Shown here: one piece after another, positions 3,272-16,314 of the stretch
How positions within the stretch are numbered: the stretch's first letter is position 1
How the letters are laid out: each line of letters opens with the position of its first letter
Source of the DNA: a virus
Taxonomy: Duplodnaviria > Heunggongvirae > Uroviricota > Caudoviricetes
Virus record (IMG/VR): IMGVR_UViG_2718218305_000006
Direction: 5' to 3' (one strand)
Length of the DNA stretch: 64,000 nt
Position numbers and translations under genes: made by a program
The notes under the pieces: generated by a model
What the model was told of the DNA's origin: nothing
Seen by the model: the letters and a program-made list of their open reading frames with translations, nothing else
Databases searched by the model: none

Positions 3272-3670
3272 ATGAAACACCGTGAAATACGGGCGGCAGT
3301 TCTGTCTGCCCTGAAAGAAAATATTTCTGAGAGGGTGAGCTGGTTTGACGGTCGCCCGGTTTTTATTGATGAACAGGAACTGCCTGCTGTTGCTGTTTAC
3401 CTGACAGATGCGTCTGCTGCTGACGAGTTCGTTGATGAGGGAACCTGGGAGGCGACACTGCATATTGAGGTTTTTCTCAGGGCAAAAGAACCGGACTCGG
3501 CACTGGATATGTGGATGGAAGAAAAAATTCTTCCTGCGCTGGAGGCAGTTCCCGGGCTCAGTGCATTACTGCTGAAGATGAATCTTCAGGGGTATGACTA
3601 CCGCCGGGATGATGAGTTTATGATGTGGGGATCGGCAGATCTCCTGTGGAAAATTACCTACGAGATGTGA
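3272..3670 (+). CDS. U: Minor tail protein U
   Basis: 132 aa, lambda gpU-like (..[26 protein letters not shown]..); divergent (~50%) from the U copy at 47223. Confidence 0.85.
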
Positions 3671-3677
3671 GGACGAT

Positions 3678-4430
3678 ATGGCAACACCAAATCCCCTTGA
3701 GCCGGTAAAAGGTGCCGGTACCACTCTGTGGGTTTACAACGGCAAGGGTGATGCTTATGCAAACCCGTTGTCAGACGATGACTGGCAGCGACTGGCTAAG
3801 GTGAAGGATCTGACGCCGGGCGAGATGACGGCAGAACCCTACGATGATAACTACCTGGATGATGAAGACGCGGACTGGACCGCGACCGGGCAGGGGCAGA
3901 AGTCTGCAGGAGATACCAGTTTTACGCTGGCCTGGAAACCGGGAGAAGAAGGTCAGAAAGGGCTTATAGGCTGGTTTGAAAGCGGGGATGTGCGGGCCTA
4001 TAAAATCCGTTTCCCAAATGGCACGGTGGATGTGTTCCGTGGCTGGGTCAGCAGTATCGGTAAGGCCGTGACGGCGAAAGAAGTGATCACCCGCACGGTG
4101 AAAGTCACTAACGTGGGCAAACCTTCCGTGGCGGAAGAACGCAGCGAAATTACGCCGGCCACTGCAATTAAGGTGACACCGACATCCGGTACGGTGGCAA
4201 AAGGGAAAACAACCACCCTGACGGTTTCTTTTGAGCCGGAAAGTGCAACCGACAAGACGTTCAGAGCGGTTTCCGCCGATCCGTCGAAAGCCACCATTAG
4301 TGTGAAAGATATGACAATTACGGTAAACGGCGTGGCGACAGGTAAGGTGCAGATCCCTGTGGTGAGCGGAAATGGTCAGTTCGCCGCAGTGGCTGAAGTC
4401 ACCGTTACTGAAGCGGGCGCTGCAGGGTAA
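3678..4430 (+). CDS. V: Major tail protein V (with C-terminal Big_2-like domain)
   Basis: 250 aa, strong similarity to lambda gpV (..[35 protein letters not shown]..). Confidence 0.9.
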
Positions 4431-4443
4431 ACGGAGGTAATAC

Positions 4444-4866
4444 ATGTTTCTGAAAACAGAACAATTTGAATATAACGGTGTGTCCGTCACGCTTTCCGAA
4501 TTGTCTGCGCTGCAGCGGTTTGATTATATGAAGTTTGTTTCAGACGCAGCACAACAGAAGACAACGAAGCATAATGCCGTGCACATTAACCAGCGATATC
4601 TGGAAACGGCATCCCTGCTTGTGGCGATGTCGCTATGGCATTCCCATTCCCTCAAAGGCACTCTGGCCTCTCCGGAGACAGAGATGCAGCAGATCCGCCG
4701 TGAAGTGATGCTGGGATGGCCTGCTGATGCACTGAATCAGGCAACGAACCGGGTGCTTTATCTTTCAGGTATGCTGGATAACCGGCACGATGCCGATCCT
4801 GAACCAACCGGGAAAGCAGAAGCGACAGAGCCGGTAACATCAAAAAAGCATTCGAAGGTGAGCTGA
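4444..4866 (+). CDS. G: Tail assembly chaperone G
   Basis: 140 aa starting MFLKTEQFEYNGVSVTLSELSALQR, lambda gpG-like. Confidence 0.85.
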   Translation: MFLKTEQFEYNGVSVTLSELSALQRFDYMKFVSDAAQQKTTKHNAVHINQRYLETASLLVAMSLWHSHSLKGTLASPETEMQQIRREVMLGWPADALNQATNRVLYLSGMLDNRHDADPEPTGKAEATEPVTSKKHSKVS

Positions 4867-5201
4867 ACTTTGTCCTGAAACTGGCGCGTGAGATGGGGAG
4901 AGCCGACTGGCGCGCCATGCTTGCCGGGATGACATCCACCGAATATGCCGACTGGCGACGTTTTTACTGCACGCATTATTTTCAGGATACCCAGCTGGAT
5001 ATGCATTTTTCCGGGCTGACGTACGCCGTACTCAGCCTGTTTTTTTGCGATCCGGATATGCATCCGGCGGATTTCAGCCTGTTCGCTCCGGAGGCAGAGG
5101 AAGGACAGGCGGAGACGCCGGACGAAAATGATGTACTGATGCAGAAGGCGGCGGGCCTCGCCGGTGGAGTCCGTTTCGGGGAGGAGGGAAGGAGGTTGTG
5201 A
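4842..5201 (+). CDS. T: T segment of G-T fusion chaperone, reached by programmed -1 frameshift from G at A_AAA_AAG (4842-4848)
   Basis: -1 frame is open from 4803; in-phase slippery heptamer tcA AAA AAG; shifted frame reads ..KKAFEGELNFVLKLAREMGRADWRAMLAGMTSTEYADWRRFY, lambda gpT-like. Confidence 0.75.
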   Translation, partial: KKAFEGELNFVLKLAREMGRADWRAMLAGMTSTEYADWRRFYCTHYFQDTQLDMHFSGLTYAVLSLFFCDPDMHPADFSLFAPEAEEGQAETPDENDVLMQKAAGLAGGVRFGEEGRRL

Positions 5202-5244
5202 CAGTTATTGATGGTATCAGAGGACATTTCAGGAGGTGACCACG

Positions 5245-14653: not shown

Positions 14654-14679
14654 GCCCGCCGGTTCAGGCGGGCTTTTTT
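14654..14679 (+). terminator. Rho-independent terminator after lom
   Basis: GCCCGCC-ggttca-GGCGGGC hairpin plus T6. Confidence 0.6.
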
Positions 14680-14690
14680 GTGGGGTGAAT

Positions 14691-16004
14691 ATGGCAGTAA
14701 AGATTTCAGGTGTACTGAAAGACGGCACAGGAAAACCGGTAGAGAACTGCACCATTCAACTGAAAGCCAGACGGACCAGCAGCACGGTGGTGGTGAACAC
14801 GGTGGCCTCTGAAAATCCGGATGAAGCCGGTCGTTACAGCATGGACGTTGAGTACGGTCAGTACAGCGTCATTCTGTTGGTGGAGGGCTTCCCGCCGTCA
14901 CATGCCGGGACCATCACCGTGTATGAAGATTCTCAACCCGGTACGCTGAATGATTTTCTCGGTGCCATGTCGGAGGATGACGTCCGGCCGGAGGCACTGC
15001 GCCGTTTTGAACTGATGGTGGAAGAGGTGGCGCGTCACGCTGAGGAGGCGAAGAAGAATGCCGGAGAGGCGGAGACGTCAGCGAGGAATGCCGGCATATC
15101 AGCCAGTCAGGCAGAAGAGAGCGCTGCAAATGCTGACACTTCAGCAGGGGATGCATCGGAGTCAGCCCGGCAGGCGGCAGAAAGTGCAGCCGCTGCAAAG
15201 CAGTCAGAGGAGGCGTCCTCGTCCTCGGCCTCTGCGGCCGCTCAAAAAGCCAGTGAGTCATCACAAAGTGCAGCAGAAGCTGAATTGTCAAGAAAGACGG
15301 CAGAAAGTGCAGCCGGTAATGCAGCCAGGGATGCAACGACCGCAGCAGAAAAAGCCCGGGAGTCAGCAGAAAGCGCACAGTCAGCGGAACAAAGCAGGAT
15401 AGCGGCGGAAGAGGCCGTAAACCGAATCCCCACCGTGGTGGGGCCTCCCGGGCCAAAGGGGGAACAGGGTCCCGCGGGTCCTCAGGGGCCGAAGGGAGAT
15501 AAAGGAGAGCGTGGCGACACCGGCCCGGCAGGGGCAACCGGTGAACGGGGGCCGGCAGGTGATGCTGGTCCGGCAGGCCCGCCGGGGCCGAAAGGTGACA
15601 GGGGAGAGCGGGGAGAGACCGGTCTGACGGGAAATGCAGGTCCACAGGGTCCAAAGGGAGATACCGGTGCGGCAGGCCCGGCAGGCCCACAGGGACCGAA
15701 AGGAGAAACAGGTGCGGCTGGCCCGGTGGGGGCGACCGGACCTCAGGGACCGAAGGGCGACCCGGGGGAGACGCAAATACGGTTCCGTCTGGGGCCGGGA
15801 AACATTATTGAGACAAACAGCCATGGCTGGTTCCCGGATACAGATGGCGCACTCATCACCGGACTGACCTTTCTTGACCCCAAAGATGCCACACGGGTTC
15901 AGGGTTTTTTTCAGCATTTGCAGGTCAGGTTTGGTGACGGGCCGTGGCAGGATGTTAAGGGGCTGGATGAAGTGGGCAGTGATACAGGCAGAACAGGAGA
16001 ATGA
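14691..16004 (+). CDS. stf: Side tail fibre protein with collagen-like Gly-X-Y repeat tract
   Basis: Ala/Ser/Glu-rich coiled region followed by about 36 Gly-X-Y triplets (residues ~253-362), then C-terminal globular domain; 54 aa longer than the copy at 58645. Confidence 0.8.
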
Positions 16005-16005
16005 C

Positions 16006-16275
16006 ATGAACATATTAAAAAAAATTATGCAGCGTCTGTGTGGTTGCGGAAAGCATGATGACCGTGAACACGGGGAGTTACTTACAGCACAGCTGCGACT
16101 GGGACCGGCAGACATCCTGGAGTCAGATGAGAATGGCATTATCCCGGAGCAGGACAGGGTAATCACGCAGGTGGTGATACTGGATGCGGATAAAAAGCAG
16201 ATACAGTGCGTGGTAAGACCGCTGCAAATCCTGCGTGCTGACGGGACGTGGGAAAATATTGGCGGGATGAAGTAA
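16006..16275 (+). CDS. Small tail-fibre-associated protein (unknown function)
   Basis: 89 aa [19 protein letters not shown]..; ATG 1 nt after stf stop; conserved in both prophages. Confidence 0.5.
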
Positions 16276-16292
16276 CCCGACAGCTTCACAAA

Positions 16293-16314
16293 ACCGGAGT
16301 CCGGCTCCGGTTTT
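16293..16314 (+). terminator. Rho-independent terminator at end of tail operon
   Basis: ACCGGAG-tccgg-CTCCGGT hairpin followed by T-rich tract. Confidence 0.5.

Follow-up and report, generated by a model that had tools for sequence, protein, structure and literature searches.

The 64,000-nucleotide stretch of DNA analysed here (IMG/VR virus record IMGVR_UViG_2718218305_000006, hereafter the window) comprises two lambdoid prophages arranged in tandem at ydfJ in an Escherichia coli O157:H7-type chromosome, and each prophage carries a copy of the same phage lambda-type tail module, here called copy A (left prophage) and copy B (right prophage). Comparison of the two copies with each other and with related prophage tails revealed that the repeat is genuine and was correctly delimited by the first-pass annotation of this DNA, and that it is an ordinary feature of enterohemorrhagic E. 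coli (EHEC). That annotation had interpreted the repeat as a recent transfer of a tail cassette between co-resident prophages, which is not supported by our results; a shared module family with patchy, multi-donor gene conversion is the better reading. Probably, the two phages each arrived with a member of one widespread tail-module family, and patches of both copies were afterwards converted from several donors.

Self-BLAST and global alignment of the window placed the two modules in direct orientation with an offset of 43,948 bp. The coordinates proposed in the first pass (3654-16314 and 47603-60108) proved essentially right, and the alignment refines them as listed below together with the genes of the module.

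3659-16343, plus strand: copy A of the tail module, from the last four codons of U to just beyond the terminator hairpin, in the left prophage with a ClpP-protease/capsid fusion head
47607-60135, plus strand: copy B of the tail module, in the right, Sakai Sp11-like prophage with a lambda-type head that adjoins ydfJ
3678-4430 (A) and 47626-48378 (B), plus strand: V, major tail tube protein (Pfam Phage_TTP_12 and Big_2)
4444-5201 (A) and 48392-49254 (B), plus strand: G and T, tail assembly chaperones (Pfam Phage_TAC_2 and Phage_tail_T)
5085-5420 (A, 335 bp) and about 49033-49377 (B), plus strand: replaced island covering the T C-terminus and the H N-terminus (from the alignment and the comparator panel)
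5236-7890 (A) and 49235-51907 (B), plus strand: H, tape measure protein (Pfam TMP_2 and Tape_meas_lam_C)
7887-10243 (A) and 51843-54194 (B), plus strand: M, L, K and I, tail-tip assembly genes (Pfam)
10433-13960 (A) and 54384-57914 (B), plus strand: J, tip attachment and host-specificity protein (Pfam GpJ domains)
14027-14626 (A) and 57981-58580 (B), plus strand: lom, Ail/Lom outer-membrane protein (Pfam Ail_Lom, E 7e-119)
14685-16275 (A) and 58639-60067 (B), plus strand: collagen-like side tail fibre stf and the small fibre-C-terminus open reading frame (ORF; Pfam phage_tail_N, Collagen and Phage_fiber_C)
16287-16317 (A) and about 60078-60109 (B), plus strand: GC-rich hairpin with flanking A and U runs, directly 3' of the last tail ORF

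The lambda tail families U, V, G, T, H, M, L, K, I, J, Lom, the tail fibre and the small fibre-C-terminus ORF were all matched in copy A above the Pfam gathering cut-offs, and copy B is collinear with copy A at 86-100% amino acid identity, which identifies both as lambda-type siphovirus tail modules and agrees with the gene content originally reported, from the end of U through V to stf and the small ORF. Four self-BLAST matches were obtained, all of them collinear and direct: 3343-5192 against 47291-49140 (91.4%), 5405-15501 against 49362-59455 (96.5%, 342 mismatches), 15636-16343 against 59428-60135 (95.1%), and 16539-17027 against 62239-62728 (97.6%), the last being a DinI-like gene that the first-pass annotation did not mention. 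With alignments spanning thousands of bases, the repeat is far above chance level. At its left boundary (3659/47607), identity rises from about 55-65% to about 100% within the last four codons of U, confirming the abrupt start at the string quoted earlier (TACGAGATGTGAGGACGATATGGC). Upstream of this point conservation is indeed poor, with U 66% identical at the nucleotide level (59% at the amino acid level) and Z only 50% (40%). The right boundary (16343/60135) lies about 25 bp 3' of the strong hairpin that follows the last tail ORF; folding energies are -26.9 and -18.4 kcal/mol (z -7.0 and -4.1), although a simple terminator scan gave no listing at this boundary.

The description of the copies as nearly identical was overstated. 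The alignment of 12,741 columns contains 488 substitutions and 269 gap columns, giving 96.1% identity if gaps are left out and 94.1% if they are counted. Its longest identical run is 573 bp; in 2,000 uniform placements of the differences, the longest run averaged 195 bp and never exceeded 442 bp. Evenly spread divergence, which the first-pass annotation had set against its own interpretation, was not seen; the differences are strongly clustered (index of dispersion 5.7), indicating that recombination was involved, and their pattern is that of patchy gene conversion from several donors. In V, 752 of 753 nucleotides are the same (99.9%) and the proteins are identical, while nucleotide identity is 97.6% in G and 93.3% in H. 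The most divergent coding stretch is M-L-K-I (96.1, 94.7, 94.1 and 93.1%, respectively). Further downstream, J has 95.9% nucleotide and 97.7% amino acid identity, and nucleotide identity is 96.5% in lom, 85.8% in stf and 97.0% in the tfa-like ORF. Synonymous divergence (dS) between the copies differs from gene to gene: it is lowest in V (0.005), rises through G (0.02) and H (0.06) to 0.14-0.23 across M, L, K, I and J, and falls back to 0.08-0.12 in lom, stf and tfa; the ratio of nonsynonymous to synonymous divergence (dN/dS) is 0.05-0.16 from M onwards, and every tail ORF is open in both copies. The high identity from V to H is common to the whole comparison panel and not peculiar to the A/B pair.

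The island at the T/H border interrupts this conserved left part, since copies A and B are only about 50-60% identical there and in part unalignable. Two alleles of it exist, each going with one head type in the strains compared: the allele of copy A is common to Z887A, Z885A, 13E0780 and YB14, and that of copy B to Z887B, Z1486, Sakai Sp11 and prophage P2 of 2012C-4227 (A and B after a strain name denoting the tails corresponding to our copies). The T portion is 102 amino acids long in A and 137 in B (35 amino acids shorter in A), and H encodes 884 and 890 amino acids, respectively, both open. The shorter T allele is flagged as 'incomplete' by the NCBI pipeline in every genome that carries it; it may be defective, or it may be a variant of T co-adapted with its H.

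When 5,426 complete E. coli genomes were searched, parts of the tail module matched in approximately 4,990, with as many as 16-17 matching places in a single genome, and a place covering at least 80% of the module was found in 618-673 genomes. Copy A is closest to a prophage tail at yebW/pphA of strain 13E0780 (98.1%) and to one at ompW of O157:H7 strain YB14 (97.9-98.0%), and copy B to the Sp11-type orthologous tails of Z887 and Z1486 (98.2%), compared with 95.0-95.7% between A and B in the same analysis. Each copy is thus nearer to outside tails (about 98%) than to its neighbor, and the two are not mutual closest relatives, as recent transfer between them would require. The joints between head and tail point in the same direction. 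The A-type U/V joint recurs with zero mismatches in 13E0780, YB14, Z885 and Z887, and the B-type joint in Z1486, Z887 and Sakai; genomes sharing a joint also carry identical RefSeq U and V proteins, and the prophages of 13E0780 and YB14 bear the same head type as copy A. The occurrence of these joints in other strains and at other loci indicates that the breakpoint was inherited from two phage lineages and not made in this genome.

These observations bear directly on the proposal that one co-resident prophage recently received the whole cassette of about 12.6 kb as a copy from the other within this genome, which we regard as very improbable. The abrupt boundary at the end of U, the near-identical V and the identical parts of H would fit such a copy, and events of this kind do occur: in Z887 (NZ_CP062761.1) the tandem prophages share a stretch of about 7 kb at 100% identity, which begins in mid-J and takes in lom, stf, tfa, three nleG genes and dinI. 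That stretch is very recent homogenization or duplication and is what genuine recent inter-prophage transfer looks like; it is missing from the window and from Z885. In the window, by contrast, 488 substitutions with a dS of 0.14-0.23 across M-J largely refute a recent copy, the longest identical run is merely 573 bp, both head-tail joints pre-exist elsewhere, both copies have closer relatives in other strains and loci, and the V-H near-identity is a property of the whole panel. Of the recombinational origin claimed in the first pass, modular recombination among lambdoid phages therefore stands, whereas recent transfer between the two residents does not, given the dS values, the closer outside relatives and the pre-existing joints.

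A shared module family that was patchily converted, our preferred reading, is reflected in the mosaic structure of both copies. Each copy was painted against a panel of ten comparator tails, within which nearest relatives and donors are defined; a 12-sequence MAFFT panel including the divergent Sp12 and 2012C-4227 P1 tails gave many gap-rich, unusable windows, and the H and copy-B tract regions were painted by pairwise BLAST instead. The nearest relative alternates along both copies, as in a gene-conversion mosaic, and four tracts stand out.

51450-53350, plus strand: imported tract 1 of copy B, comprising the end of H, M, L and K (approximate bounds, set by eye from 100-bp bins)
56600-57600, plus strand: imported tract 2 of copy B, in central J (pairwise painting)
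59440-59830, plus strand: imported tract 3 of copy B, in the stf collagen region (pairwise painting)
6600-7300, plus strand: B-type (Sp11-type) haplotype tract within H of copy A (pairwise BLAST painting)

Outside its three tracts copy B is Sp11-type, and of the 261 mismatches that separate it from Z887B, 231 fall within the tracts. In tract 1, copy B departs from the Sp11 orthologues and agrees with the P1 prophage tail of 2012C-4227, a non-O157 Shiga toxin-producing E. coli (STEC), with 0-1 mismatch per 100 bp from about 51800 and a looser fit at 51450-51800. Tract 2 shows 0-4 mismatches per 100 bp to prophage P2 of 2012C-4227, compared with up to 18 per 100 bp to the Sp11 orthologues. Copy A was considered as donor of this tract and rejected, because it fits the first 400 bp only and a haplotype like that of 2012C-4227 P2 fits all of it. 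Tract 3 is nearest to 2012C-4227 P2 in its first approximately 160 bp only, and the match is weak past about 59600. Copy A is A-type at the left, mosaic in L-K, and almost identical to 13E0780 from 9969 to 16400. Within its H, the tract at 6600-7300 differs from copy B by 4 mismatches and from each A-type relative by about 39; this tract of about 0.7 kb is the best candidate for gene conversion from the neighboring prophage, and it is the sole place where the neighbor appears to be the most economical donor.

The compound prophages at ydfJ of O157:H7 strains Z885 (NZ_CP062763.1) and Z887 consist of the same two prophage types in the same order as in the window, and the junction region of Z885 is 99.9% identical to ours. 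The non-tail backbone of the right prophage (17001-51000) has only 14 differences from Z887 in 34 kb, with 29 of 34 1-kb bins having none, whereas the tails reach 75-91 differences per kb in dense patches (441 differences, counting mismatches and gap positions, for tail A over window 1-15581, and 261 mismatches for tail B). A backbone nearly free of single-nucleotide polymorphisms (SNPs) next to dense tail patches indicates that the tail differences from the orthologues are recombinational and recent. This contrast with orthologues is not evidence of homogenization between A and B. Eleven of the differences from Z887 cluster at 35001-37000, in the lysis region of the otherwise near-identical right prophage, and may represent another short conversion tract among shared lysis cassettes. 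After tail A, Z885 carries a 1,417-bp segment with the type III effector gene nleC, and this segment is absent from the window (at 16343-16350, between the tail module and dinI); in Z887 three nleG genes occupy the spot. The cargo slot after the tail is thus variable among near-identical strains. In 2012C-4227 (NZ_CP013029.1, 2022000-2104000), tandem prophages at ydfJ likewise repeat the same tail family, and these tails hold the haplotypes seen as tracts in copy B; one of the two is a degraded Stx2a prophage in which insertion sequence (IS) elements have taken the place of the head region.

From these data we infer the following order of events, recombination mechanism and donors. Lambdoid phages are modular mosaics with joints at gene boundaries. 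Two phages would have integrated independently, each bearing its own allele of a lambda-type tail-module family (V to tfa) that had been joined to different heads at the U/V gene boundary, a classic lambdoid module junction. Afterwards, short tracts would have been exchanged by homologous recombination (gene conversion) among both copies and the many other genomic copies of the module, the partners being other tail alleles in resident paralogues or incoming phages, and the process could have been mediated by RecA or by phage recombinases (Rad52-like or ExoVIII systems). The outcome would be the mosaic described above, with V to H almost invariant family-wide, M to J diverged by 5-7%, and imported tracts of 0.4-1.9 kb on top.

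Several points weigh against this scenario. Neither tail copy has a full-length match of at least 99% in the 5,426 complete E. coli genomes. The L/K tract of copy B exceeds 96% identity at no locus of any complete O157:H7 genome and reaches at least 99% in two genomes only, both of them non-O157. Such a lack of matches and so rare a tract are unusual for a clonal lineage, and there is a small chance that they reflect consensus or assembly error. The donors, moreover, are inferred from ten comparator tails, and resident paralogues and incoming phages would leave the same trace in the window.

The same rare tracts allow a more specific interpretation, which we put forward tentatively. The copy-B L/K and central-J haplotypes, the two tracts searched, were found at no locus of any complete O157:H7 genome and are present in non-O157 STEC prophages. 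Both tails may very recently have taken up tracts of 0.4-6 kb (L/K, central J and stf in copy B; the whole I-to-tfa half in copy A) on a near-invariant backbone, so that excision-defective resident prophages would be re-tailored by superinfecting phages of other serotypes, mainly in their tail-tip and host-range genes. We consider this possible, though rather less than probable.

An assembly artefact, either a spurious duplication of one copy or a chimeric consensus from reads of several paralogous tails, would account for the lack of matches of at least 99% to either module and for differences from orthologues that are confined to the repeated region, and repeats of this kind are known to create false variants (PMC7645076). 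This explanation is very unlikely. The first-pass annotation had itself named duplication in assembly as an alternative, and it is unlikely to hold, because 488 sites as well as indels separate the copies, whose flanks also differ. The tandem layout is seen again in Z885 and Z887, two independently closed genomes, the main deviant patches (tracts 1 and 2) are contiguous and equal to real haplotypes and not an interleaved SNP mixture, and the tail ORFs are all open in both copies. Very unlikely, too, is a tandem duplication of one ancestral prophage with later replacement of the head and early regions in one copy, the tail being its remnant: the direct repeats in adjacent prophages at one att site, the likewise repeated dinI and right end, and the tandem prophage duplications reported in O157 (PMC8743559) would fit it, but other strains carry the A-type head together with this tail as an entire unit elsewhere on the chromosome, the M-J divergence is too great for a duplication inside the O157 lineage, and each T/H island allele goes with its own head type from strain to strain. 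In outgroup strains, moreover, A-type and B-type phages exist as complete elements separate from each other.

Several genes of the module deserve further description. A slippery heptamer, A AAA AAG, is located at 4842-4848 in copy A and 48790-48796 in copy B, 16 nucleotides upstream of the G stop codon, and both copies have an open T frame from this point on; by analogy with the lambda G/GT paradigm, a -1 frameshift yielding G and GT is predicted in both. GGGAAAG at 4810 was rejected as the slippery site, since it is in the wrong register and is not found in copy B. The C-terminal, receptor-binding end of J has just 1 difference per 200 bp. In stf, a 162-bp in-frame indel (15492-15653) falls within the collagen-like Gly-X-Y repeats, and this sequence is present only in A.

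Further features of the two prophages outside the tail module are as follows.

60040-62181, plus strand: three NleG-family type III effector genes (Pfam T3SS_NleG), between the tail module and dinI
16539-17027 (A) and 62239-62728 (B), minus strand: second, shorter repeat with the DinI-like gene (Pfam DinI), at the right end of each prophage (97.6%)

The window matches E. coli O157:H7 genomes, and its layout agrees with the annotated records of Sakai and of Z885 and Z887. There is no chromosomal DNA between the prophages, with dinI of the left one running directly into the truncated int of the right one (17062-17613), and a truncated ydfJ fragment occupies the right end of the window (62717-64000). 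The head modules are unrelated, as had been stated in the first pass: Pfam identifies a ClpP-protease/capsid fusion in the left prophage and lambda-type terminase, portal, S49 protease and gpE in the right one. The left prophage is of the type adjoining the Sp11-like prophage in Z885 and Z887. In gene order and cargo, the right prophage corresponds to Sakai Sp11, including truncated integrase and ExoVIII pseudogenes, ileZ/argO tRNAs, pchB, the lambda-type head, nleG2-3, nleG6-2, nleG5-2 and dinI. The NleG trio, named after the Sakai annotation, occurs only after copy B and breaks the repeat there.

On the minus strand at 17062-18839, a truncated integrase (183-amino acid ORF with a partial Phage_integrase match) overlaps a truncated ExoVIII/RecE ORF of 414 amino acids; their position at the left end of the right prophage, as in the Sakai Sp11 pseudogenes, implies that self-excision is not possible. 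In Sakai, Sp11 and Sp12 are co-located in tandem (PMC7645076), and their integrases are disrupted and excision is not detectable (PMC2669165). Two phage tRNA genes lie at 31209-31461 upstream of the lysis region, assigned by ARAGORN as tRNA-Met(CAT) and tRNA-Arg(TCT); the first is annotated by RefSeq as tRNA-Ile (ileZ), which implies a lysidine-modified CAT anticodon. Downstream of the tRNAs, a 616-amino acid ORF at 32540-34390 (in relatives annotated as DUF6645 / SASA-type esterase) is intact in the window as it is in Sakai; in Z887 and Z885 the orthologue carries an annotated internal stop. The sole difference from Z887 in bin 32001-33000 falls in or beside this gene.

Among known systems, the Sakai Sp11-Sp12 compound prophage is located at the same site (truncated ydfJ) and, like the window, consists of adjacent prophages sharing tail genes in direct orientation. 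The tail of Sakai Sp11 is 97.7% identical to copy B. The left prophage of the window is not Sp12, whose head genes and V, G, T and H are different ones and whose aligned tail reaches only 76% identity, and the IS cluster and nleG pseudogenes found between both prophages in Sakai are missing here. Spontaneous deletions in the Sp11-Sp12 region are attributed to Chen et al. (2013) in later papers (as cited in PMC7430833 and PMC8630535). Adjacent lambdoid prophages with direct repeats, Phi804-9 and Phi804-10, are also present in O157:H7 FRIK804, where recombination deletes about one prophage length (PMC7430833). Different from the window, in which only the repeats are seen and no deletion is observed, the 47.7-kb deletion in FRIK804 used an 822-bp repeat of the antirepressor gene and not the tail module.

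At the gene level, the module follows the tail cluster of phage lambda (Z-U-V-G-T-H-M-L-K-I-J-lom-stf-tfa) in gene order and Pfam families. The predicted G/GT -1 frameshift arrangement and the position of lom and the side tail fibre downstream of J are also as in lambda, in which the slippery heptamer is G GGA AAG, different from the A AAA AAG found here. Unlike in lambda, stf encodes a collagen-repeat fibre and is followed by a small fibre-C-terminus ORF in place of tfa.

A shared tail repeat with its risk of deletion and its hazard for short-read assembly is a well-documented, already published architecture of EHEC prophages. Lambdoid prophages of O157 share near-identical segments that recombine, giving rise to chimeric phages (PMC2669165). 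In farm isolates, 47.7 kb was lost by homologous recombination between repeats of adjacent prophages (PMC7430833). Within one patient, repeat recombination produced a 50-kb indel in a compound prophage of the Sp11/Sp12 kind, and false SNPs are reported in the same paper (PMC7645076). Prophage repeats of at least 5 kb form the borders of large chromosomal rearrangements (PMC8743559). In the window, direct repeats 43.9 kb apart would likewise be a substrate for deletion, duplication or conversion mediated by RecA or phage recombinases. The intervening 44 kb, a whole prophage's worth of genes, is prone to deletion or duplication, and an unequal A/B exchange would remove 43.9 kb, and the hybrid prophage left behind would combine the A head with a chimeric tail and the nleG cargo, bringing nleG effector genes beside a hybrid tail.

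The collapse hazard for short-read assemblies pointed out by the first-pass annotation is real and documented (PMC7645076). With two 12.7-kb direct repeats 44 kb apart and a dozen or more paralogues at other places of such genomes, these assemblies break or collapse, and false SNPs arise in outbreak typing. The exact K protein of copy B is recorded only on two draft contigs of 2.2-2.4 kb (GCA_028223175.1 and GCA_012398925.1), both ends of which lie inside the tail module, illustrating how the module fragments short-read assemblies. For the biology of these bacteria, the window represents a further case of the EHEC "prophage pool," in which defective prophages go on exchanging tail segments, and it introduces no new principle; sister strains with near-identical backbones and different tail mosaics show that tail modules turn over rapidly.

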